Source: a virus (taxonomy: Duplodnaviria; Heunggongvirae; Uroviricota; Caudoviricetes). Taken from it: DNA of 30,565 bases. The number at the start of each line of letters is the position of its first letter. Position 1 is the first letter of the stretch. The DNA is taken from the IMG/VR virus record IMGVR_UViG_2778261446_000008, positions 1 to 30,565 of that record, one strand, 5' to 3'. The position numbers were made by a program, and so were the translations under genes. Shown here one piece after another: positions 683 through 30,565 of the stretch. The notes below the pieces were generated by a model. That model saw only the letters and a list, made by a program, of their open reading frames with translations, made no database searches and had not been told where the DNA came from.

Positions 683-909
683 TGGCAGATGCAATGGATC
701 TCGTACAGCAGCGCGTTGAAGAAGAACGCCAGCGCTATATCCGTGCTGCCCGTGCCAAAACACCGGGCGTGTCTCGTGTGCTTTGTATTGAATGTGAAGC
801 GCCAATTCCGCCAGCACGACGCCGCGCCATTCCTGGAGTGCAGCTTTGCATTACCTGTCAGGAAATCGCAGAGCTGAAAGGCAAACATTACAACGGAGGT
901 GTTGTATGA
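682..909 (+). CDS. TraR/DksA-family C4 zinc-finger protein
   Basis: 75-aa ORF with two CxxC pairs (CIEC ... CITC) in the spacing typical of TraR/DksA C4 zinc fingers; the P2/186 early region carries such a gene upstream of A. Its stop overlaps the Dam start (ATGA at 906-909). Confidence 0.7.
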   Translation: MADAMDLVQQRVEEERQRYIRAARAKTPGVSRVLCIECEAPIPPARRRAIPGVQLCITCQEIAELKGKHYNGGVV

Positions 910-1763
910 GCACCATCCTGAAATGGGCGGGAAATAAAACCGCCATTATGTCCGAACTGAAAAAACATCTTCCTGCTGGCCCGCGACTGGTTGAACCTTT
1001 CGCGGGTTCCTGTGCTGTGATGATGGAGACGGATTACCCCAGCTATCTTGTTGCGGATATTAATCCTGATTTAATCAACCTCTATAAAAAGATTGTCGCT
1101 GATTGCGAAGCGTTTATATCTCGTGCCAGAGCTTTATTTGAGGAAGCAAACAGGGATGTGGCTTATTACAACATAAGGCAGGAGTTTAATTACTCCACTG
1201 AAATTACTGATTTCATGAAAGCGGTATATTTCCTGTATCTCAATCGTCATGGTTACCGTGGGTTATGTCGCTATAACAAGAGCGGGCATTTCAACATTCC
1301 GTACGGTAATTATAAAAATCCGTATTTCCCTGAAAAAGAAATTCGCGCATTTGCAGAGAAAGCCCAGCGGGCAACGTTTATCTGCGCAAGCTTTGATGAA
1401 ACGCTGGCGATGCTGCAGGTGGGGGATGTGGTGTATTGCGATCCGCCGTATGACGGTACGTTTTCCGGCTATCACACTGATGGTTTCACTGAAGATGACC
1501 AGTATCACCTGGCATCCGTTCTTGAACATCGGTCATCAGAAGGACATCCGGTCATTGTTTCTAACAGTGACACATCCCTGATCCGTTCGCTGTATCGCAA
1601 TTTTACTCACCACTACATCAAGGCAAAACGCAGCATCGGTGTGGCAGCTGGTGAGAGTAAATCTGCAACAGAAATCATCGCTGTTTCCGGGCCGCGCTGC
1701 TGGGTGGGATTTGATCCTTCGCGTGGCGTGGATAGTTCAGCCGTGTACGGAGTACGTGCATGA
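906..1763 (+). CDS. DNA adenine methyltransferase (Dam-like, N6-adenine MTase)
   Basis: N-terminus [11 protein letters not shown]... resembles the Dam AdoMet-binding region, and the catalytic DPPY motif is present (VYCDPPYDG). The track ORF begins at 846, but ATG 906 overlapping the upstream stop is the likely start. Its stop overlaps the start of A (ATGA at 1760-1763). Confidence 0.85.
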
Positions 1764-4174
1764 GTCATGCCGATATGAACAACTGCTGCGGCTTTAACGA
1801 GGCTGCCGCAGCGTTCTCATGGAACAGCCCGAAAAAGGCCATTAACCCTTATCTGGACCCGGCGGAAGTTGCGCCGGTTTCTGCGCTTTCAAACCTGATC
1901 ACTCTGTACGCTGCCGATAACGAGCAGGAACAACTGCGCCGCGAGGCACTGAGTGATCAGGTCTGGGAGCGTTATTTTTTTAATGAATCACGTGATCCTG
2001 TCCAGCGCGAAATGGAGCAGGATAAGCTCATTAGCCGGGCAAAGCTGGCGCATGAGCAGCAGCGTTTTAATCCGGATATGGTCATTCTGGCGGACGTCAA
2101 CGCCCAGCCTTCCCATATCAGCAAGCCGCTGATGCAACGTATTGAATACTTTAGCAGCCTGGGCAGGCCAAAGGCTTATTCCCGCTATTTACGTGAGACG
2201 ATTAAGCCATGTCTGGAACGACTGGAGCATGTACGCGACAGCCAGCTATCTGCATCTTTTCGTTTTATGGCAAGCCATGAAGGGCTGGACGGCCTGCTTA
2301 TCCTGCCTGAAATGAGTCAGGATCAGGTGAAGCGCCTGTCTACCCTTGTCGCTGCGCATATGAGCATGTGCCTTGATGCCGCTTGTGGTGATTTGTATGC
2401 CACCGATGACGTTAAGCCAGAAGAAATCCGCAAAACATGGGAAAAGGTGGCAGCGGAAACCCTGCGTCTGGATGTTATTCCGCCTGCGTTTGAGCAACTC
2501 CGTCGGAAAAGAAACCGCCGTAAACCCGTGCCCTATGAACTCATTCCGGGTTCGCTTGCGCGTATGTTGTGTGCCGACTGGTGGTATCGGAAATTATGGA
2601 AGATGCGTTGCGAATGGCGGGAAGAGCAGTTGCGTGCTGTCTGCCTGGTCAGCAAAAAAGCATCTCCCTATGTCAGCTATGAAGCCGTGATGCATAAACG
2701 TGAGCAGCGCCGCAAGTCACTGGAGTTTTTCCGTTCTCATGAACTGGTGAACGAAGAGGGCGACACGCTGGATATGGAAGACGTGGTAAACGCCAGCAGC
2801 AGCAACCCGGCGCACCGCCGCAATGAGATGATGGCCTGTGTTAAAGGTCTGGAGCTTATCGCGGAAATGCGTGGTGATTGCGCCGTTTTCTACACCATTA
2901 CCTGTCCGTCACGTTTCCATTCCACGCTCAATAACGGCAGACCAAACCCAACCTGGACAAATGCGACGGTAAGACAAAGCAGCGATTATCTGGTCGGCAT
3001 GTTTGCTGCATTTCGTAAGGCGATGCACAAAGCCGGGTTGCGCTGGTATGGCGTGCGGGTGGCTGAGCCGCATCATGACGGTACGGTTCACTGGCACCTG
3101 TTGTGTTTCATGCGCAAAAAAGACCGCCGTGCCATTACTGCATTGTTGCGTAAGTTTGCCATCCGTGAAGACCGCGAGGAACTGGGTAATAACACTGGTC
3201 CACGCTTTAAATCTGAGCTGATAAACCCGCGCAAAGGAACACCGACAAGCTACATCGCGAAATACATTAGTAAGAACATTGACGGGCGTGGTCTGGCTGG
3301 CGAGATCAGCAAGGAAACGGGTAAATCCCTGCGTGATAACGCTGAATACGTTAATGCCTGGGCGTCTCTGCATCGTGTTCAGCAATTCCGCTTCTTTGGT
3401 ATTCCGGGGCGTCAGGCTTACCGTGAACTGCGATTGCTGGCTGGTCAGGCGGCAAGGCAACAGGGCGACAAAAAAGCAGGTGCGCCGGTACTGGATAACC
3501 CGCGCCTTGATGCCATCCTGGCTGCTGCTGATGCTGGTTGTTTTGCCACTTACATCATGAAGCAGGGTGGCGTACTGGTTCCCCGCAAATATCACCTCAT
3601 CAGAACTGCTTATGAAATTAACGAAGAGCCGACCGCCTATGGCGATCACGGCATTCGTATTTATGGCATCTGGTCACCCATTGCAGAGGGCAAGATCTGC
3701 ACTCATGCAGTGAAGTGGAAAATGGTCCGTAAAGCCGTTGACGTTCAGGAGGCGGTAGCCGACCAGGGCGCTTGCGCCCCTTGGACTCGTGGCAATAACT
3801 GTCCCCTTGCTGAAAATTTGAACCAACAAGGGAAAGACAAATCAGCTGATGGGGATACCAGAACGGATATCACCCGCATGGATGACAAGGAGTTGCACGA
3901 TTACCTGCACAGTATGAGCAAAAAAGAACGCCGGGAACTGGCAGCAAGGTTACACCTGGTTAAACCGAAACGGCGTAAAGACTACAAACAGCGAATTACA
4001 GACCATCAGCGACAGCAGCTCGTGTATGAGCTGAAGTCCAGAGGGTTTGATGGTAGCGAGAAAGAGGTCGATTTACTCCTTCGCGGCGGCAGTATTCCGT
4101 CAGGAGCAGGCCTGCGTATCTTCTATCGGAACCAGCGTTTGCAGGAAGATGATAAGTGGCGAAACCTGTATTAA
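1760..4174 (+). CDS. A: replication initiation protein A (rolling-circle replication endonuclease, P2 gpA-like)
   Basis: 804-aa ORF at the position of P2 gene A; contains the active-site tyrosine motif [12 protein letters not shown] typical of P2 A / phiX A-family initiators. Confidence 0.85.
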
Positions 4175-4266
4175 TTACGATGGTTAACCATTCGTGCTCT
4201 TAATAATACCAGGCATATCAGGCTGATAAACGTAAAAAAACGTTTTACATCAGTAAGATTATTATA

Positions 4267-4286
4267 TACTGTAAATATAAACAGTG
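4267..4286. promoter_or_regulatory. LexA box (SOS operator) in the promoter region of the Tum/DinI-like operon
   Basis: Sequence tactgtaaatataaacagtg has CTGT (4269-4272), an 8-nt AT-rich spacer and ACAG (4281-4284), matching the consensus TACTGT-(AT)4-ACAGTA. It lies in an AT-rich intergenic region about 40 nt upstream of a strong RBS and ATG at 4328. Confidence 0.65.
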
Positions 4287-4327
4287 GTTATACATACAGT
4301 ATTGCGTGTGGTGTCATAGGAGGAAAG

Positions 4328-4516
4328 ATGCAGGACTATTTTTTGGAGTCTTTGAAGCTCCAGCGCATTGATTTTTTTCTTAAGCTTGTAGCGGCCAGTG
4401 AGTGTAGTGATGAAGAGAAGGGACTGGCTCTGCAGTGGGTTTCTGAATTGACTGATGAACTCATGGCAAAAATCAGAAGCCACGAATACAACCGCTCAAT
4501 GGATGTCATCAGCTGA
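4328..4516 (+). CDS. hypothetical protein; candidate N-terminal part of a Tum-like SOS-inducible antirepressor
   Basis: 62-aa ORF with a strong RBS (aggagg, 4318-4323) directly downstream of the LexA box; its 3' end overlaps the open frame of the DinI-like gene (4455-4516) in a +1 relationship. Confidence 0.5.
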   Translation: MQDYFLESLKLQRIDFFLKLVAASECSDEEKGLALQWVSELTDELMAKIRSHEYNRSMDVIS

Positions 4517-4526
4517 GGTGACTTTT

Positions 4527-4760
4527 ATGCGCATTGAAATAATGATCGATAAAGAGCAGAAGATTAGCCAGTCTACCCTGGACGCCCTTGAATCCGAGCT
4601 TTACCGTAATCTGCGCCCCCTGTATCCCAAAACGGTAATTCGTATCCGCAAAGGTAGCTCTAACGGTGTGGAACTGACCGGACTGCAACTGGACGAAGAA
4701 AGGAAGCAAGTGATGAAAATTATGCAGAAGGTGTGGGAAGACGACAGCTGGCTGCATTAA
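4527..4760 (+). CDS. DinI-like protein (DinI family, SOS-regulated)
   Basis: 77-aa product from ATG 4527 (RBS gaggtg 4515-4520): MRIEIMIDKEQKIS...VWEDDSWLH aligns by eye with E. coli DinI (MRIEVTIAK...TWESADDWF). The track ORF starts at 4455, but the DinI homology begins at 4527. Confidence 0.75.
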   Translation: MRIEIMIDKEQKISQSTLDALESELYRNLRPLYPKTVIRIRKGSSNGVELTGLQLDEERKQVMKIMQKVWEDDSWLH

Positions 4761-4964
4761 GAAACGTTGCTGGCGTCTGAACTTGTTTCTGGCGTCAGCA
4801 AGGTTGAACAACGAGCCCTTGCGAGGCGTTAGCTCTGTAGTGCATGTCTATGCCGCATGAGATCGCATGATCGTTTGAGGATCGTTTTTGCTAAGGCCCG
4901 CCAGAACTGGTGGGCTTTTGCGTAGATCATGCAGGTGCATGAAAACCACTACATAAAGCGGGCA

Positions 4965-4983
4965 GGCGTGGCGGGGATACGAG
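4965..4983. other. cos-like site (putative cohesive-end / terminase cleavage sequence)
   Basis: GGCGTGGCGGGGATACGAG followed by GCGCGC closely resembles the 19-nt cohesive ends of P2 (GGCGAGGCGGGGAAAGCAC) and 186 as I recall them; it sits in the A-to-Q interval where cos is expected in a P2 prophage. Confidence 0.5.
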
Positions 4984-5085
4984 CGCGCGCTAACTCATAA
5001 ATCCTAGATTATTAGTGGATTTATCTCATTGAAATGTGCACTATTCCCAGCATTGAGTTGTACCAGATGTCTTTATGGAGGGACT

Positions 5086-6852
5086 GTGGCTTTTGTAACT
5101 GATATTCGGCTTGAAGATAATGCTATTGCTGCACCTGCGACAGCACAGGTTATGGCTCAGAGGCTAGGATCTGTATTACGTAAGAGATATGAAGAATTCA
5201 TCCATAAAAGAGAGTGTGCACCAGGCCAAGCAGACTATGATGTAAAAATGGCTAGCAGGGCTTTAGCCGCATTCACTATGTATCAGTTAGGATGTGTGGA
5301 TGATAAGTATGCAGGGGAGTCTGTATGTGATAGTAGTGAAGATGGTGGTATAGATGGAATAGCAATCAACCATAACGAAAAAATCGTTGTTGTTGTTCAA
5401 TCAAAATTTCACCAATCGGGAAACGGCACTTGGACAAGAGCCGATTTTATGTGTTTTAAGGATGCTTGTGAGAAGCTACAAAGTGAAAGATACGAATTAT
5501 TTGATTCCATATTGCAAAATAAAAGCGGGGAAATAAGTGCGGCTTTAAGTAGTTTTGAATACAAGTTCATCTTTGCGATGGCGCATACAGGTAAAAAAGG
5601 TGCTGCAGAGGAAATATTAAATGATATGCGGGAATGGCAATATCAATTAAACGCTGCAGCTTTTACACCTGAGGATGAGCCTAAAGAGAACTGGGGATTT
5701 CAGGTTCATTTAATATCCTCTGAAGATATGATGCATTGGTTACAGAATGGCTCTCGAAATCAAATTGATCTTAACAGGGTTGAAATTGAGCGTTTTGGAT
5801 TTTTGAATGAACCATATCAAGCTTTTTACGGGGCTATTAGTGGTGATCAAGTTGCAGAATGGTGGGAAGAGCATGGTGCTCGATTATTTACAAAAAACAT
5901 AAGGAATATGCTTGGTAAAACAGAAGTGAATGAGGAAATAAAAAAGACAGCTATAGATAATCCTGATATGTTTTGGTTTTATAATAATGGGATTACTGTA
6001 CTGGTTAAGGAAGTTGTTCCTCATAGACGAAACGCAGCTCCTAATATAGAGAGAGGGATTTTTGATTTTCGTGATGTAAGTGTCATTAATGGTGCACAAA
6101 CAGTCAGTAGTATTGGCGCATGTAAAGATGCGCTTGGTGAAAACATATATAGACTCAAAGTGCCAGCTAGATTCATTGTTATAGATGATGATACTGATAA
6201 TTTAACTGCAAATGCAATTACAAAAGCTAACAATTTCCAAAATAGAGTATTGGGAAGAGATTTTGCATCGCAGCAGGCAGATCAACATAGATTGGCAAGG
6301 GAGTTAGTGCTTGAAGGATATCAATATCAGTTACTAAGAACAGATGAAGATCATTCACAGACAAATACGAAAGTCATTGACTTGGATGAGGCGCTCAATG
6401 CACTCGCATGTTTAAGTAAAAATAATACGGTTGTATCGACACTAAAATCAAATCGCGGTAGGTTTTTTGAAAATTTTGAAGGCTCTCTATATAAAACTAT
6501 TTTCAATCCAAGATTAAGTGGTTTAAAACTTATCAATACTGTTCTACATTTTAGAGTTATAGATAAGTTGATCGGTAAAACATTACTATCAGTAGATAAA
6601 ACGACCCATAGTCGCAAGCATTTAATTATTACGCATGGTAATAGATACTATGCGTCTGTACTATTGAGCAACGTTTCTGGGATACATAATAGCTCAGAAA
6701 TTCTTGTTCCAGATGAAAAAAATCTTTCCGAAGAATTAAGTGCATTAATTCAACGTGCTGAAGAGTACATTGAAGATAATTACCCGAATGCCTATCCGGC
6801 AAGATTTTTTGCAAATCCAACGAAAATACAAGAGTTATACGATAATGTTTAA
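5086..6852 (+). CDS. AIPR-like putative abortive-infection protein with an N-terminal PD-(D/E)xK-like nuclease motif (candidate anti-phage cargo gene)
   Basis: Long ORF (track 5029..6852 from a TTG, 607 codons); plausible starts are GTG 5086 (RBS ggaggg 5077-5082) or ATG 5152. Markedly AT-rich relative to flanking phage DNA. Motifs: SEDGGIDGIAI...VVVQSKF (D...QxK nuclease-like) and a central FWFYNNGITVL / INGAQT block that I recall as AIPR-like. Lies between cos and Q and ends at a strong terminator. Confidence 0.6.
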   Translation: MAFVTDIRLEDNAIAAPATAQVMAQRLGSVLRKRYEEFIHKRECAPGQADYDVKMASRALAAFTMYQLGCVDDKYAGESVCDSSEDGGIDGIAINHNEKIVVVVQSKFHQSGNGTWTRADFMCFKDACEKLQSERYELFDSILQNKSGEISAALSSFEYKFIFAMAHTGKKGAAEEILNDMREWQYQLNAAAFTPEDEPKENWGFQVHLISSEDMMHWLQNGSRNQIDLNRVEIERFGFLNEPYQAFYGAISGDQVAEWWEEHGARLFTKNIRNMLGKTEVNEEIKKTAIDNPDMFWFYNNGITVLVKEVVPHRRNAAPNIERGIFDFRDVSVINGAQTVSSIGACKDALGENIYRLKVPARFIVIDDDTDNLTANAITKANNFQNRVLGRDFASQQADQHRLARELVLEGYQYQLLRTDEDHSQTNTKVIDLDEALNALACLSKNNTVVSTLKSNRGRFFENFEGSLYKTIFNPRLSGLKLINTVLHFRVIDKLIGKTLLSVDKTTHSRKHLIITHGNRYYASVLLSNVSGIHNSSEILVPDEKNLSEELSALIQRAEEYIEDNYPNAYPARFFANPTKIQELYDNV

Positions 6853-6856
6853 ACTA

Positions 6857-6882
6857 AAGGGAGGTTGCCTCCCTTTTTTTTA
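6857..6882. terminator. bidirectional rho-independent terminator between the AIPR-like gene and Q
   Basis: aagggagg-ttg-cctccctt hairpin followed by TTTTTTT on the + strand and preceded by A-rich sequence; sits between two convergent stop codons (6852 and 6884). Confidence 0.7.
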
Positions 6883-6883
6883 A

Positions 6884-7912
6884 TTAGAAATGGTATTCTT
6901 GGAATTCAATAACACCTTCTTTTATGAAATTGTTTATTTCTTGTAATCTTTTTTGCAATGGCAATAATTCATTACGTACAAATACTTTACTCGCCTTCTC
7001 TACATCTCCAAAGCCCCCGACATTATTAGGCATTATCCCCATCATTTGTGGCGGCACACGATGCGCCGCCATCATGTCGTCCCGGCTCACGTTCTTGATA
7101 TTCAGGAACTCATCCTTCGCCGCCACTTCTGACAACGGGATAATCTGAAGCCCGTCCTTTTTACCGTTAGGCGAGTACATAAACAGGTTACGGAAGTTAC
7201 CAGGACCTTTGGCGCTTTTCATCGCATTGCGGAGGTTGTTCACATCCTCCTGGTTCTGCGCTGCATCGGTCATGTACATGATGAAGCCTGCATGACTGCC
7301 GTTAATGTAATACTTGCGGCGGAACAGCGTGGCGGACTCGTTGAGCAAAGCGGATGGGATGGCAGAAAGATAGCCGGGCAGGCCGTAGATCTCCTGATTA
7401 ATATCCGGTTCCATCAGATGAAAAATGCTGCCTTTCGTGAACTGATACGGCTGGGTTGTCATACCGTATTGCACAAACCAGTAGGTATCCAGGTCTAACC
7501 CGCGTCGGGTGTATTTTGCCAGAGCAGGCTCAAGGGCGATAACTTCACCGAAGCGGTTCGTGCGTTTCTCCAGGTAGGCGTTACCAAATACCAGATAGTC
7601 CTGCACAAAACGTGAAAAATCCTGCTGGCTGAGCAGCGGGTGAGGGATGTAGGTACTGGTCAGAATGTTGCATTTCACTGCAATCGGTGAACTGTGATGC
7701 ACGGCGGCGCGGAAGGTGCGCGCCAGCCCGTCAAAGCTTACTGGCGGCTCATACCAGCGATCTGTCTGTACGCATTCCACATAGTCCAGCAGTTCGCGGC
7801 GGTCCAGAACAGGAACGGGATCACCGAAGCTGAATGCTTCGGCTGAAGTCTGGCTTTTATGCTGGATCTGGTTCGTCGACGCAGCGCGGTTCTTCTTACT
7901 CTTTCCCATCAA
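6884..7912 (-). CDS. Q: portal protein (P2 gpQ-like)
   Basis: 342-aa ORF immediately downstream of the large terminase gene on the same strand with an ATGA start/stop overlap (7909-7912); P2 synteny and size. Confidence 0.85.
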   Translation of the reverse strand: MMGKSKKNRAASTNQIQHKSQTSAEAFSFGDPVPVLDRRELLDYVECVQTDRWYEPPVSFDGLARTFRAAVHHSSPIAVKCNILTSTYIPHPLLSQQDFSRFVQDYLVFGNAYLEKRTNRFGEVIALEPALAKYTRRGLDLDTYWFVQYGMTTQPYQFTKGSIFHLMEPDINQEIYGLPGYLSAIPSALLNESATLFRRKYYINGSHAGFIMYMTDAAQNQEDVNNLRNAMKSAKGPGNFRNLFMYSPNGKKDGLQIIPLSEVAAKDEFLNIKNVSRDDMMAAHRVPPQMMGIMPNNVGGFGDVEKASKVFVRNELLPLQKRLQEINNFIKEGVIEFQEYHF

Positions 7913-19698: not shown

Positions 19699-20121
19699 AT
19701 GTACATATTTGACAACAAAACGCAGTGTTTTTTCCCTCTCGCATTGAAAGACAGATATATTGCTGCCGGAACATGGCCGGAGAATGGCGTTGAGGTGGAT
19801 GACGATACTTTCTCCGAATTCCAGGTGCCGCCAGCAGGGAAAATGAGAGTTGCAGGCAGTGACGGCCTGCCTGCATGGGGTGATATCCCGCCGCCCACCC
19901 ATGAAGAATTGATCACCATTGCTGAACAGGTGCGCCAACAGCTGCTGACTCATGCTGACGCGGTAATGCTCGACTGGCGAACGGAACTAATGCTGGATGA
20001 AATCAGCGACACCAACAGAGCTAAACTGTCGGCATGGCTGGCGTATAAGAATGAAGTTAAGGCGGTTGATGTGACAACCAACCCTGAGCATATTAACTGG
20101 CCTGTTCCCCCGGAGGTGTAG
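19699..20121 (+). CDS. G: tail fibre assembly protein (P2 gpG-like)
   Basis: 140 aa; follows H after a 3-nt gap; C-terminal ...NWPVPPEV resembles the conserved tfa C-terminus. Confidence 0.8.
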   Translation: MYIFDNKTQCFFPLALKDRYIAAGTWPENGVEVDDDTFSEFQVPPAGKMRVAGSDGLPAWGDIPPPTHEELITIAEQVRQQLLTHADAVMLDWRTELMLDEISDTNRAKLSAWLAYKNEVKAVDVTTNPEHINWPVPPEV

Positions 20122-20509
20122 GCCATACGGGTTTTGCTGTATCAACCCGCATTAACAGTACCCGGTACTTCTTCCACTCAGACAACGCGGCGGTTTCCTC
20201 ATCCGTCGCGATATCCGCGTCAACAGCATCCTGTCGCCAGGCTATTTCAGAATCCGCCCGCGTACGTAAATCACGTCGTGTTTGCTCAGCCCGGGCAACT
20301 CGTTCTTCAGGCGACAGGGAGGGGATGTCAACCCACACAGGATAACCATTATTATCCGTTCCCAGCATTTTCCCTTCCGGTGGGTACTGGCTATAAACAG
20401 CCATTGCCTCATCACTCACATCGGCAGCATGTTCCGGCCACGTTCCGGCAGAAACATAGGCATCTTTAAGTGCTTCCGGATAAAAAACACCCTGATAAAA
20501 TTTATTCAT
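20093..20509 (-). CDS. alternative tail fibre assembly protein (tfa'), expressed after inversion
   Basis: 138-aa product from ATG 20509 (MNKFYQGVFYPEA...WPTPPGEQAS), homologous to G; the track ORF 20093..20650 reads through from the upstream alternative fibre segment. ATGA overlap with the alternative H segment. Confidence 0.7.
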   Translation of the reverse strand: MNKFYQGVFYPEALKDAYVSAGTWPEHAADVSDEAMAVYSQYPPEGKMLGTDNNGYPVWVDIPSLSPEERVARAEQTRRDLRTRADSEIAWRQDAVDADIATDEETAALSEWKKYRVLLMRVDTAKPVWPTPPGEQAS

Positions 20510-20958
20510 AAATACCCCACAGCGAAGAAACAGCAATCTTCCACCGCCCCTGCTGGCGCCCAGTTTTGGATCCTGATTTGAGACCGATTTTCTATACTGA
20601 CATTCATTGACTGGCTGTAGCCATTCGCTGCTCTGCATCCCATAGCCCACAGACCTGCGGTTGGAAATGCATAGGGCAGGTTGTAGATATTATTCTCTCC
20701 GCCGCGTGTCCGTATGGTTCCCCACTGCAGCATTATCTTTACCGGATTATCTGTGGTTGCAAGACAAGGAATATACAAATAGCCATTTCCACCGGCGAAG
20801 AAAGAGAAATCTGATGCACTCAATACCTGATTTTTTCCCACTCCCATAGAGGCCAGTGCCGCCGTACCAAGCTGAAGGGCATTTCTGAAAGCGGCCACAT
20901 TCTGAATATCACCACCGTTTGCACTTTTCTGCATCGCTCCAGCGGCCTGTTTTACCGT
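20506..20958 (-). CDS. alternative tail-fibre variable C-terminal segment (Hv'), promoterless and startless; fused in frame to constant H after inversion
   Basis: The minus-strand ORF (track 20506..21012) is homologous to the current H C-terminus (RNALQLGTAAL vs REALNLGNAAL; LQWGTI vs LQWGNT). The reading frame across crossover site 2 matches the H frame across site 1. Confidence 0.65.
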   Translation of the reverse strand, partial: TVKQAAGAMQKSANGGDIQNVAAFRNALQLGTAALASMGVGKNQVLSASDFSFFAGGNGYLYIPCLATTDNPVKIMLQWGTIRTRGGENNIYNLPYAFPTAGLWAMGCRAANGYSQSMNVSIENRSQIRIQNWAPAGAVEDCCFFAVGYL

Positions 20959-20984
20959 TTCTTCCAAATGAACGTTTAAGAAAA
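20959..20984. repeat. candidate 26-bp invertase crossover site 2 (inverted relative to site 1)
   Basis: TTCTTCCAAATG-AA-CGTTTAAGAAAA; its reverse complement matches site 1 at 17 of 26 positions with identical central TT; about 55 bp upstream of the invertase gene. Confidence 0.45.
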
Positions 20985-21039
20985 TGCAGAGATAACGGCT
21001 AACTGGCATCATCTCCGGTTTTTATTCAGGGGGATGATC

Positions 21040-21606
21040 ATGCTTATTGGCTATGTACGCGTGTCAACAAATGACCAGAACACCGATTTGCAACGCAATG
21101 CACTGAACTGTGCGGGATGTGAGCGGATTTTTGAGGATAAAATCAGTGGCACCAAGTCCGACAGACCGGGGCTGAAAAAGCTGCTCAGGACACTATCGGC
21201 AGGAGACACGCTGGTTGTCTGGAAGCTGGACAGACTGGGGCGCAGTATGCGGCATCTTGTTACGCTGATAGAAGAGCTGCGCCAGCGTGGCGTGAATTTC
21301 CGAAGCCTGACTGACAGTATTGATACCAGCACCCCAATGGGCCGTTTCTTTTTTCATGTCATGGGTGCCCTGGCTGAAATGGAACGCGAACTGATAGTTG
21401 AACGTACCAGGGCGGGGCTGGCTGCAGCTCGTGCTAAAGGCAGAGTAGGTGGACGCCGTCCTAAGTTGACCAGCGAACAGTGGGCACAGATTGGGCGTTT
21501 ACTCGAGGCCGGAGAATCAAGACAGCGTATTGCACTGATTTTTGATGTAGGCGTTTCTACCATTTATCGAAAATTTCCGGCAAATAAGAACAATAAATCT
21601 CCCTGA
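21040..21606 (+). CDS. site-specific DNA invertase, serine recombinase (Hin/Gin/Cin/Pin family)
   Basis: N-terminus MLIGYVRVSTNDQNTDLQ with catalytic serine context (YVRVST), resolvase core, and C-terminal HTH (GVSTIYRKF); 188 aa from ATG 21040. Confidence 0.9.
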   Translation: MLIGYVRVSTNDQNTDLQRNALNCAGCERIFEDKISGTKSDRPGLKKLLRTLSAGDTLVVWKLDRLGRSMRHLVTLIEELRQRGVNFRSLTDSIDTSTPMGRFFFHVMGALAEMERELIVERTRAGLAAARAKGRVGGRRPKLTSEQWAQIGRLLEAGESRQRIALIFDVGVSTIYRKFPANKNNKSP

Positions 21607-27489: not shown

Positions 27490-28586
27490 ATTTCAGCTCT
27501 GAACTGCTTAACAAAGGCAACAAAACTCCCGCATTCAGCATCAGTATTGAGGGGAAGGATATCACCACTGTGCTGGACAAACGCCTGATGGGGCTTACGC
27601 TGACGGATAACCGGGGCTTTGAAGCGGACCAGCTTGATCTGGAGCTGGACGACGCCGACGGAAAAATCGTGCTGCCGCGCCGTGGTGCGGTCATTACGCT
27701 GGCGCTGGGCTGGAAGGGGCAGCCGCTTTTCCCGAAAGGGGCATTCACGGTGGACGAGATTGAACACACTGGTGCACCGGATCGCCTGACTATCCGGGCG
27801 CGAAGTGCGGATTTTAGGGAAACGCTGAATACCCGCCGTGAAAAATCGTGGCATAAGACCACCGTCGGGGAAGTGGTGAAGGAAATAGCCGCGCGGCACA
27901 AGCTGAAGATGGCACTGGGTAAAGACCTGTCGGATAAGCCCGTGGAGCATATAGACCAGACTAATGAGAGTGACGGCAGTTTTCTGATGCGGCTGGCGCG
28001 ACAGTACGGTGCCATCGCGTCGGTGAAAAATGGCAATCTGTTATTCATCCGGCAGGGGCAGGGCAAAAGCGCCACTGGTAAACCTCTGCCAGTGATCACT
28101 ATCACACGCAAGGACGGCGACAGTCACCGATTTACCCTGGCAGATCGCGGAGCCTACACGGGCGTAATTGCCAGCTGGTTGCATACCCGCGAACCTGCGA
28201 AGAAAGAAAGCACCACGGTGAAGCGTAAGCGCAGAACTAAGAAGCAGAAGAAAGAGCCAGAAGCGAAGCAGGGCGATTACCTGGTGGGTACGGATGAAAA
28301 CGTGCTGGTACTTAATCGCACTTATGCCAACCGGAGCAACGCCGAACGAGCGGCGAAAATGCAGTGGGAACGCCTGCAACGCGGCGTTGCGTCATTTTCT
28401 CTACAACTGGCAGAAGGGCGGGCAGATCTCTACACGGAAATGCCTGTGAAGGTCAGTGGTTTTAAACAGCCGATAGATGATGCGGAATGGACCATTACGA
28501 CTCTGACACATACCGTCAGCCCGGATAACGGTTTTACAACCAGTATTGAACTCGAAGTGAAGATTGATGATCTTGAAATGGAATAA
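27486..28586 (+). CDS. D: tail protein D (P2 gpD-like, late control gene D)
   Basis: 366-aa ORF between U and ogr; P2 synteny. Confidence 0.85.
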   Translation: MNFSSELLNKGNKTPAFSISIEGKDITTVLDKRLMGLTLTDNRGFEADQLDLELDDADGKIVLPRRGAVITLALGWKGQPLFPKGAFTVDEIEHTGAPDRLTIRARSADFRETLNTRREKSWHKTTVGEVVKEIAARHKLKMALGKDLSDKPVEHIDQTNESDGSFLMRLARQYGAIASVKNGNLLFIRQGQGKSATGKPLPVITITRKDGDSHRFTLADRGAYTGVIASWLHTREPAKKESTTVKRKRRTKKQKKEPEAKQGDYLVGTDENVLVLNRTYANRSNAERAAKMQWERLQRGVASFSLQLAEGRADLYTEMPVKVSGFKQPIDDAEWTITTLTHTVSPDNGFTTSIELEVKIDDLEME

Positions 28587-28654
28587 AGTGTTCTCAATAT
28601 TGATATTTTGTGTATCATTACAATGATTCTGATAGCAAAGGTAGGGATCTGGAT

Positions 28655-28873
28655 ATGATGAATTGTCCAAAGTGTGGTCATGCGGCACACACAAGGAGCA
28701 GTTTTCAAGTAACTGAAAGCACCAAAGAGCGTTACTGCCAGTGCCAAAATATTAACTGCGGGAGTACTTTTGTTACCCATGAAACAGTGGTCCGGTTTAT
28801 TGTGACACCCGCACTGATTGCTACTGCTCCTCCACATCCATTGCCAGGTGGTCAGGGGCATATGAATTTTTGA
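28655..28873 (+). CDS. ogr: Ogr/Delta-family zinc-finger late transcription activator
   Basis: MMNCPKCGHAAHTRSS...KERYCQCQNINCGSTFVTHETV matches the P2 Ogr zinc-finger pattern (CPxC...H...KERYHQCQNVNCSATF); 72 aa; RBS gtaggga upstream. Confidence 0.9.
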   Translation: MMNCPKCGHAAHTRSSFQVTESTKERYCQCQNINCGSTFVTHETVVRFIVTPALIATAPPHPLPGGQGHMNF

Positions 28874-28880
28874 GAAAGAG

Positions 28881-28904
28881 AACCTGCTACGGCAGGTTTT
28901 TATT
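28881..28904. terminator. bidirectional terminator between ogr and the WYL-BRCT gene
   Basis: aacctgc-tacg-gcaggtt hairpin followed by TTTTATT on the + strand; located between convergent stops (28873 and 28900). Confidence 0.65.
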
Positions 28905-29382
28905 CATCTGGGATCTCACCCGTTTCAAGAAAATGTATAAAGCCAGGCTCATCTATGATGATTGTGCCTTTCATCCTGGCTGCCGATACTTTTGATGGGC
29001 CTGCATTGTAACCGCAACAGAGCATCTGAAGGCTTTGGGTTACAGAGGTTCTTACCGTTAATCCTTGTTCATTCGCCTTATCAACCAATCTTTCTTTATC
29101 TGCTTTCTTAAATCCGGTGAAACACACATCGAATGTATTTTTTTTCGGACCAGACTGCTTGGTGAGATGTGAGTAGTTTTCGGGGAGGAATGACGCGCAC
29201 TCCTGAATGGCTTGTTCTGGTGAATCGTACTGTTTAAGAATGCGGTCTTTTCGGAAGGTTTTTATTCGATCGGTGTTCTTACAAATGCCCTGTATATGAT
29301 TTTCGCTATAACTGATGCTCTGTATAGAGTGAACACCGATACGACCATTTGCATTGATGTAAACAAAGTGAAGTTCTTCCAT
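28900..29382 (-). CDS. small WYL-domain plus BRCT-domain protein (cargo gene between ogr and the ssrA junction)
   Basis: 160 aa; N-terminal half has a WYL-like signature (FVY...G...R.FRKDRI); C-terminal half has a BRCT-like pattern (NTFDVCFTGF...LTVRTSVT...CCGYNAGPSKVSAARMKGTIIIDEPGFIHFLETG). RBS agagg 6 nt before the ATG; AT-rich composition. Confidence 0.6.
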   Translation of the reverse strand: MEELHFVYINANGRIGVHSIQSISYSENHIQGICKNTDRIKTFRKDRILKQYDSPEQAIQECASFLPENYSHLTKQSGPKKNTFDVCFTGFKKADKERLVDKANEQGLTVRTSVTQSLQMLCCGYNAGPSKVSAARMKGTIIIDEPGFIHFLETGEIPDE

Positions 29383-29505: not shown

Positions 29506-29868
29506 TGGTGGAGCTGGCGGGAGTTGAACCCGCGTCCGAAATTCCTACATCCTCGGTACTACATGCTTAGTCAGTCTTTACATTCGCTTGCCAGCTGCGG
29601 ACGGACACGCCACTAACAAACTAGCCTGATTAAGTTTTAACGCTTCAACCCCAGGCAGGGCTTCCACGCGATCTCTTTTGGGTTTGACCTCTCTTGATCC
29701 CCGTCCTAAGAGCGGAGGCTAGGGAGAGAGGGCTCTAAGCAGGTTATTAAGCTGCTAAAGCGTAGTTTTCGTCGTTTGCGACTATTTTTTGCGGCTTTTT
29801 ACGAGGCCAACCGCCCCTCGGCATGCACCTTGGGTTTCGCAAATCCCGTCGAATCCAGAATCAGCCCC
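29506..29868 (-). ncRNA. ssrA: tmRNA (SsrA, transfer-messenger RNA)
   Basis: The reverse complement reads GGGGCTGATTCTGGATTCGACGGGATTTGCGAAACCCAAGGTGCATGCC...GCAAACGACGAAAACTACGCTTTAGCAGCTTAA...GGTTCAACTCCCGCCAGCTCCACCA, i.e. the enterobacterial tmRNA including the tag-peptide reading frame (ANDENYALAA) and the tRNA-like 3' end. Confidence 0.95.
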
Positions 29869-30082
29869 AATGTGTAAAGGTAAGTATACCAGATTTATGA
29901 GCGCCATGACCAGCCTCAATGGCGTTATCGTTAAAGATTTAGCACCCATGTAGCCTGATTTTTATTCGATTAAGCAATGGGATGGCAACATTTGTGTCGG
30001 ATGTGATAGCCAATAAGATGTTCATTCGCGCCGCCGGAGAGGGAGGCGCGGTGAGGAACTGGTCAATAATTGGAGTGCAGGT

Positions 30083-30565
30083 TTAACGGTGGGCGTTTTT
30101 CATGATACGCGCTTTATCCACCTGCCATTCGCGCTCTTTGATATCTGAACGTTTATCGTGCTGTTTCTTACCTTTGGCGACGCCGATTTTCACTTTGCAC
30201 CAGGCATTTTTCCAGTACAGGGAGAGCGCCACTACGGTATAGCCTTCTCGATTGACGCGACCGTACAATGAGTCCAGTTCGCGCTGGTTGAGAAGTAACT
30301 TGCGGGTACGGGTAGGATCGCACACCACATGCGTGGAGGCCACTGCCATTGGCGTGATGTTTGCGCCAAACAGGAACGCTTCTCCGTCACGCAGAAGGAC
30401 ATAGCTGTCGCTGATATTGGCTTTTCCTGCGCGCAGGGATTTAACTTCCCAGCCTTGCAGGGCAAGTCCCGCTTCGAACTCTTCTTCGATAAAGTATTCG
30501 TGACGGGCGCGCTTGTTAAGCGCGATGGTCGCTGAACCAGGTTTATGTGCTTTTTTCTTCGTCAT
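30083..30565 (-). CDS. smpB: SsrA-binding protein SmpB
   Basis: 160-aa product [56 protein letters not shown]... matches E. coli/Salmonella SmpB as I recall it; located upstream of ssrA on the same strand. Confidence 0.95.

Follow-up and report, generated by a model that had tools for sequence, protein, structure and literature searches.

An AIPR-family gene as a putative stand-alone defence cassette between cos and the portal gene of a P2-like prophage of Escherichia coli

What is a single, strikingly AT-rich gene doing between the cos site and the portal gene Q of a P2-like phage? The question is raised by IMG/VR virus record IMGVR_UViG_2778261446_000008, of which positions 1 to 30,565 were analysed (30,565 nucleotides, referred to as the window). 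The window holds a P2-like prophage (Fels-2/186-type) that is integrated at ssrA in E. coli, and the gene in question codes for a protein of the AIPR family. Our answer is that the gene is probably a stand-alone defence 'moron' of the AbiU/AIPR type, placed in the cos-to-Q slot and encoding a sensor-nuclease that would protect the lysogen. The family membership of the protein, its domain folds, the conservation of its catalytic residues, its single-gene status and the mobility of its cassette are established here. Both the protein and the locus are already known, as is evident from the RefSeq name, the detection by PADLOC and PHROGs, the hotspot listing of Rousset et al. 2022 and the reports of AbiU in P2 and P4. 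The additions made here are minor: the assignment of the start codon, a map of the nuclease fold and its conserved residues, and a layout of two slots around cos with exchange of the portal tail.

Family and domains of the AIPR protein

The open reading frame (ORF) proposed for this locus by the initial annotation, 5029-6852 on the plus strand, exists, and the motifs quoted from it are present in the translation: D86-G-G-I-D90-G, V-V-V-Q105-S-K107, FWFYNNGITVL and INGAQT (residue numbers are counted from GTG 5086). The start had been left ambiguous between TTG 5029, GTG 5086 and ATG 5152. It is now settled at GTG 5086, so that the gene has 588 and not 607 codons. In Enterobacterales, Vibrio, Pseudomonas and cyanobacteria most homologues have 588-610 amino acids (aa), and their common N-terminus is MAFV.DIR.EDNA, whose M1 is invariant in the alignment (A1); on the basis of these N-termini, TTG 5029 and ATG 5152 were dropped. 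The RefSeq product at the same locus in relatives is also 588 aa long, and a Shine-Dalgarno sequence stands ahead of the GTG (Table 1).

Profile searches placed the protein in the AIPR family, as had been suggested, well above the gathering score. Pfam AIPR (PF10592) matched residues 268-563 with E=6.7e-35 and 121.7 bits against a cutoff of 25, over positions 1-305 of the 308 in the profile, and all 46 aligned homologues match the same profile. The AbiU model of PADLOC (PDLC02357) was matched nearly over its full length (E=6.3e-25; residues 77-563, profile positions 45-512 of 537). PHROG 1841 (phrog_1841), which is described as 'Abi alpha-like abortive infection mechanism' and belongs to the moron category, was matched with E=7e-173. 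In RefSeq the protein is named AIPR family protein (WP_021542068.1, 588 aa). The family is large: with clustering at 50% identity, 4,026 clusters match with E<=1e-3, and 425 do so with E<=1e-30; lengths of 550-590 aa predominate among them, with a match over nearly the whole length. Assignment to MzaE of the MZA system was rejected: the NCBIfam score was 58.3 bits against a cutoff of 1050, the match was partial (residues 248-396), and the partners MzaA-D are absent from the window and its relatives.

An AlphaFold2 model built from the 46 homologues was confident (predicted local distance difference test, pLDDT, 85; predicted template modelling score, pTM, 0.76). A Foldseek search of the PDB with this model gave nothing significant. 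Searches of PDB sequences by phmmer and by profile hmmsearch gave chance matches only, and thus no solved relative was found by sequence. The model has an N-terminal domain with the core alpha-beta-beta-beta-alpha-beta fold, in which the aspartate stands at the start of the second strand and the (D/E/Q)xK motif lies in the third. D90 starts one strand and Q105-S-K107 lies within the next, which is the canonical PD-(D/E)xK geometry. Among 58 homologues, down to 24% identity, D82, D86, G88 and D90 are invariant and Q105 and K107 are at least 90% conserved. The motif of the Mrr family is (D/E)...(D/E/Q)xK, and in MspJI the substitutions D334A and Q355A abolish activity (PMC2938202). The N-terminal domain is thus a predicted PD-(D/E)xK nuclease of FokI/MspJI-type fold, and the nuclease core proposed for it is confirmed at the level of fold and motif.

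The AIPR core that follows contains the motifs NIR (271-273), NNG (300-302), NGAQT (335-339) and NxQN (383-386). In the 58 homologues N271, R273, N300-N301-G302, N335-G336-x-Q338 and N383-x-Q385-N386 are as conserved as the nuclease motif. The core weakly resembles ParB and sulfiredoxin folds. This is suggestive only of a relation to the ParB superfamily, in agreement with Makarova et al. 2013, according to whom AbiU1/AIPR contains a ParB-superfamily domain. The ~155 helical residues at the C-terminus gave no specific fold match. An N-terminal HEPN domain, as claimed for AIPR (PMC3506569), was also considered and rejected, since a HEPN fold with an Rx4-6H motif was not found in the protein.

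A mobile single-gene cassette beside cos

The anatomy of the locus was resolved by blastn of the window against seven related loci (L001-L007). Four segments were seen: an A-side flank conserved to ~4833, a conserved cos block, a variable segment at 4992-6932, and a region in which conservation returns at 6932/6933. The point of return falls inside the portal ORF. The last ~16 codons of Q (6884-6932) therefore belong to the cassette, as comparison with relatives carrying other cargo indicates. Each type of Q-side cassette comes with a separate terminator hairpin and a distinct form of these codons, and among L001-L008 the C-terminal tail of the portal protein varies by cargo type with a common pattern kept.

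The AT-richness noted for the gene was borne out by calculation. The AIPR ORF has a GC content of 0.366, and 0.256 at third codon positions (GC3), against 0.50-0.61 and 0.56-0.69 for the flanking genes A, Q, P, O, N and M. The cassette as a whole has a GC content of 0.363 vs 0.536 for the remaining window, and the lowest value among all other 1,941-bp windows of the 30.5-kb sequence is 0.464.

A cos-like site was said to lie directly before the AT-rich gene. It does, and it is conserved in every relative examined; variable DNA in the relatives begins directly after ...GCGCGCGC. The site resembles the P2/P4 cos core GGCGAGGCGGGGAAAGCAC, known from cloned P4 sequences, with 5 mismatches. A search of the window for the P2 cos 19-mer at up to 3 mismatches gave no match; the site is a lineage variant. 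Its function as cos is inferred.

Cargo is found on both sides of cos, that is, on the side of gene A and on the side of gene Q. The A-side slot is filled in L001-L003, L005 and L007 with 0.7-2.2 kb of other cargo (DUF2971, ComF with a hypothetical gene, DarT/DarG, HNH, and a hypothetical gene), and is contiguous in L004 and L006, as it is in the window. Further A-side cargos in loci carrying the AIPR gene are an AAA_15/21 ATPase with a 248-aa ORF, and DUF4145. All inspected loci with the same AIPR gene (12 complete genomes and 10 contigs) hold another system in this slot. In the window the slot is empty, and the AIPR gene is thus its only cargo. The Q-side slot holds the same AIPR gene as the window in L001-L003, a DUF262 protein in L004, a divergent AIPR gene (77% nucleotide identity) in L005 and a Hypoth_Ymh protein in L006. 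In L007, the Klebsiella phage ST11-OXA48phi15.3, it holds at 2929-4671 an AIPR gene whose product is 26% identical in a profile alignment.

The gene had been placed exactly where P2 carries its accessory genes. This stands at the level of the gpA-gpQ hotspot, since a variable, non-core gene beside cos of a P2-like prophage is what was found. The side of cos needs correction: P2 carries tin and old on the A side, whereas the AIPR gene is on the side of gene Q, where P2 has only 167 bp from cosL to the Q stop codon, containing tQ (annotated 160-181).

The cassette was found in 12 of 5,426 complete E. coli genomes, always chromosomal and always adjoining the portal gene, whereas its flanks were matched in ~1,290 of them. 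Over 13 loci, the cassette and that of the window have 99.4-99.9% identity. The corresponding values in these loci are 82-97.5% for the left flank, 83-95% for the cos block, 93-94% for Q and mostly 96-97% for P. The exact protein of the window is indexed in 2,292 blocks of an assembly collection. Rarity relative to the flanks, and replacement by DUF262, Hypoth_Ymh or divergent AIPR genes, agree with a gene outside the phage core. The recent horizontal acquisition argued for in the initial annotation is supported by the foreign composition together with cassette identity above that of the flanks. Thus, this is a recently spreading accessory cassette and not a core phage gene.

The cassette contains one ORF and has no room for a second gene. 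No Rfam match and no tandem repeat, and hence no hidden RNA partner or ToxI-like repeats, was found in 4700-7000. The identical protein occurs with at least six different A-side cargos, with cos in between. Orthologues in Pseudomonas and Synechococcus (54-58% identity) are solitary, with no common neighbour and no methyltransferase. Three Vibrio loci have in common a downstream ORF of 301 aa, which the other genera do not have, and one Vibrio copy follows gpD at the end of a further P2-like prophage. The space in the cassette, the swapped cargos and the neighbourhoods of the orthologues agree with the earlier view that there is no partner gene. Judged from this genomic context, the AIPR gene is a stand-alone single-gene system.

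At its ends the cassette carries two further elements. The perfect inverted repeat in the leader, directly after cos, could be an operator or an RNA hairpin. The terminator behind the gene had been called strong and bidirectional; the hairpin is indeed strong, but it is bidirectional only in part, as a good T run is present on the plus strand only.

Function of the cassette and competing explanations

The protein would be expressed from the prophage and held inactive. Its effector would be the N-terminal Mrr/MspJI-type PD-QxK endonuclease, and the AIPR core, with its weak likeness to ParB/sulfiredoxin-fold domains that bind nucleoside triphosphates (NTP) or DNA, would together with the C-terminal helical domain presumably act as sensor or regulator. 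When a heterologous phage infects the cell, this AIPR/helical module would detect a cue from it, for example its DNA or a modification of that DNA, a nucleotide or one of its proteins. The activated module would then license the nuclease domain, and nucleic acid would be cut, with DNA as the most probable substrate. Cleavage would block phage gene expression and replication, so that the lysogen, and hence the prophage, would be protected. The anti-phage phenotype is inferred, along with substrate, trigger and outcome (abortive infection or direct immunity); the explanation as a whole draws on the family matches, the single-gene status, the hotspot locus, the accessory mobility, the function of AbiU elsewhere and the size of the family.

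Several observations weigh against the defence reading. The Pfam Mrr_cat match of the nuclease domain is sub-threshold (E=0.17, 12.5 bits vs a cutoff of 21), and among the 46 homologues Mrr_cat and Mrr_cat_2 gave sub-threshold matches in only 3 and 4, so that at the Pfam threshold the claim of a nuclease core did not hold. The Klebsiella AIPR protein of L007 has Y at the position aligned to K107 (QCY, not QSK); some AIPR clades, to judge from this alignment, may use a shifted lysine or differ catalytically. A search for a sigma-70 consensus promoter from cos to the start codon gave none; the only plus-strand site near the start lies inside the ORF at 5093-5121. Expression in the lysogen is therefore an assumption. 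The nearest tested relative from E. coli, the AIPR protein of the P4 satellite (pFR77), appears in Table S2B of Rousset 2022 under 'additional tested systems' and not among the validated ones. The Vibrio AbiU sequence, taken from a study supplement, is 33% identical to the window protein over 123 central residues only; it comes from isolate 10N.261.52.F1, whereas the cloned system DS34 comes from 10N.261.52.F10, and so it may not be the tested protein.

Three other explanations were weighed and ranked by likelihood, with type IV-like restriction ahead of a selfish cassette and the latter ahead of a packaging-related function. Under type IV-like restriction, the protein itself would recognise and cut modified or non-self phage DNA and the cell would survive. 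The resemblances to MspJI, AspBHI and BrxU and the absence of a methyltransferase fit such an activity. However, no SRA/PUA-type or other recognisable reader of modifications is present in the protein; the ParB-like match is weak, and when the family profile was aligned by hhalign with the DUF262 protein from the same slot of L004, no relation was found. Lactococcal AbiU, moreover, delays transcription and has modest effects on efficiency of plating (EOP). We regard this explanation, in which the protein would be an analogue of GmrSD/BrxU/SspE with reversed domain order or of MspJI/AspBHI, as plausible but rather unlikely.

Near identity of the cassette (99.4-99.9%) in prophages that differ by 3-18% in their flanks could also be the mark of a selfish element, in which the nuclease mainly promotes its own spread or retention, through homing-like cutting of empty cos-Q sites or through addiction, and has little defence value. 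A nuclease is encoded, and protection was not reported for a relative, the pFR77 protein. In Pseudomonas, Vibrio and cyanobacteria, however, orthologues are found as solitary genes without a phage around them, unrelated cassettes swap likewise in this slot, which is a general hotspot, no signature of a homing-endonuclease family is seen, and the large conserved AIPR and helical domains exceed what homing needs; this makes a selfish role very improbable. The location directly between cos and the portal/terminase operon, with the weak ParB-fold resemblance, would suit a protein that handles phage DNA by modulating cos cleavage, packaging or interference with P4-type satellites. Such a role is hardly credible for a gene of foreign composition that is present in only ~1% of related prophages, can be replaced by unrelated genes and has orthologues away from phages. 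A stand-alone sensor-nuclease that defends the lysogen is the explanation which we prefer.

A degenerate ParB/Srx-like switch (NIR, NNG, NGAQT, NxQN) may control the Mrr/MspJI-type PD-QxK domain. Two linked proposals, that AIPR proteins are nucleotide- or DNA-gated nucleases and that the P2 hotspot consists of two independent slots flanking cos, are put forward only tentatively, and taken together they are less likely than not. If the first is true, AIPR proteins would parallel GmrSD/BrxU/SspE in mechanism, with their domains in the opposite order, which would provide a testable mechanism for a large family. If the second is true, cargo exchange would also diversify the C-terminal tail of the portal protein. 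The layout of two slots and the swap of the portal tail are small refinements of the hotspot picture. The locus is nevertheless a clean case of a prophage with a single-gene defence candidate in the cos-proximal hotspot. The E. coli allele offers an experimental handle, being compact, stand-alone and native to a tractable host; D82, D86, D90, Q105, K107 and the NNG and NGAQT residues are obvious targets for mutants in a family of ~4,000 clusters at 50% identity.

Surroundings in the window and relation to known systems

Table 1. Features of the AIPR locus and of other parts of the window
Feature	Position	Strand	Basis or remark
D12-class (Dam-like) N6-adenine methyltransferase	846..1763	+	upstream of gpA
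gpA	1760..4174
Empty A-side (tin/old-equivalent) cargo slot, left of cos	4833..4841		similarity to relatives breaks here
Conserved cos block, 150 bp	4842..4991		present in 7/7 relatives
cos-like site GGCGTGGCGGGGATACGAG	4965-4983		followed by CGCGCGC to 4991, where AT-rich DNA starts
Exchangeable AT-rich cassette, 1,941 bp: leader, AIPR gene, terminator, last ~16 codons of Q	4992..6932	+	blastn vs L001-L007
Perfect 8-bp inverted repeat ATAAATCC-N12-GGATTTAT	4997..5024		in cassette leader, directly after cos
Shine-Dalgarno GGAGG	5077..5081	+	4 nt before GTG 5086; read from sequence
AIPR/AbiU-family gene, 588 aa	5086..6852	+	Pfam AIPR, PADLOC AbiU, PHROG 1841, RefSeq
Predicted N-terminal PD-(D/E)xK (Mrr/MspJI/FokI-like) nuclease domain, residues ~50-222	5233..5751	+
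Putative catalytic motif D82-x3-D86-G-G-I-D90 ... Q105-S-K107	5329..5406	+
Pfam AIPR domain, residues 268-563	5887..6774	+
C-terminal all-helical domain, residues ~433-588	6382..6849	+
Hairpin terminator, 9 bp with 5 G-C pairs and T run	6856..6876		between convergent AIPR and Q genes; positional equivalent of P2 tQ
Portal gene Q, 342 aa	6884..7912	-
Tail-fibre C-terminus/assembly genes, opposed	20093..21012 and 19699..20121	- and +	next to invertase
Hin/Cin-type serine invertase	21034..21606	+	Resolvase E=2e-53
Host ssrA (transfer-messenger RNA, tag ANDENYALAA)	29506..29868	-

The genes of the window are arranged in the order Dam-type methyltransferase, gpA, an ORF of 62 aa, a DinI-like gene, cos, the AIPR gene, Q, P, O, N, M and the tail genes. 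Q and P are on the minus strand, and Q is convergent with the AIPR gene. The D12-class methyltransferase is not linked to the AIPR cassette; it becomes relevant if the nuclease proves to be modification-sensitive. In some relatives an extra ORF of 235 aa, named 'terminase large subunit domain', lies between Q and P (6565-7272 in L001, 6824-7531 in L011 and L014); the window is without it. By its appearance, 19699-21606 is an invertible tail-fibre segment. The right end of the window carries gene D, ogr and a BRCT-like ORF, followed by host ssrA and smpB (the latter also within 29506-30565, minus strand). The prophage abuts the 3' end of ssrA, and this junction recurs in 164 complete E. coli genomes. 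Gene D/ogr and ssrA are separated by a stretch of low GC content (0.40-0.43; 28430-29382, minus strand) with two ORFs. The ORF of 143 aa gave no match. RefSeq annotates that of 160 aa as 'BRCT domain-containing protein', and it shows a weak match (E=1.8e-7) to the C-terminal part of PADLOC PDC-S48. This end of the prophage may thus have a second, small site for cargo.

Among the known systems, P2 old and tin are likewise prophage-borne exclusion genes, cos-proximal in the gpA-gpQ region, but they encode unrelated proteins and lie on the A side of cos. The single-chain logic of a sensor joined to a nuclease is shared with GmrSD/BrxU/SspE, which combine a ParB-like NTPase (DUF262) and a nuclease, and with MspJI/AspBHI, which are Mrr-like type IV enzymes. 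The window protein matches the nuclease fold and the D...QxK motif of MspJI/AspBHI and weakly matches the ParB fold of BrxU. It differs from these enzymes in that no DUF262, DUF1524, HNH or SRA domain was detected in it, in the domain order, which is reversed in GmrSD, and in having no relation to them at the sequence level.

Nearer counterparts are found within the AIPR family. The pFR77 protein (WP_032211572) has the same architecture, with DDNGIDAI...VQSKW, FWYYNNGIT and VNGAQT, and is likewise single-gene cargo near cos. It is 33% identical to the window protein over 401 aligned positions, but it belongs to a different clade and is carried on a satellite and not on a helper phage. Vibrio AbiU shares with the window protein the AIPR family, a D...QxK-type motif (IQTK), NNGVT and VNGCQT. 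In bioRxiv 10.1101/2024.06.14.598830 ten types of defence system, among them AbiU of Vibrio breoganii (DS34), were cloned under their native promoters and 9 of the 10 were protective; the same study names Surt, a phage inhibitor of AbiU.

AbiU, known from Lactococcus lactis (AbiUi/AbiU1) and as a type in PADLOC and DefenseFinder, is, like the window protein, a single polypeptide of ~570-590 aa with a FokI-type N-terminal domain, and its hidden Markov model is matched nearly over the full length. In PMC13064643 the lactococcal protein is described as a single gene that delays phage transcription and lowers EOP to 0.1-0.01, with a predicted structure that superimposes on FokI. AbiU-1 has been classed among the single-gene PD-(D/E)XK defence systems. 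The relation is at the profile level only, between a lactococcal system and one of an enterobacterial P2-like prophage, and the phenotype of delayed transcription is that of the lactococcal protein.

Experiments support the gpA-gpQ region as a hotspot of defence genes (Rousset et al. 2022, PMC9122126), in which WP_021542068 is listed 12 times (Table S5A of that study), and AbiU is reported from P2 as well as P4 elements in a 2026 preprint. The loci of WP_021542068.1 have, like the window, a 588-aa AIPR protein beside the portal gene in P2-like E. coli prophages; unlike the window, they have the A-side slot filled with another system.

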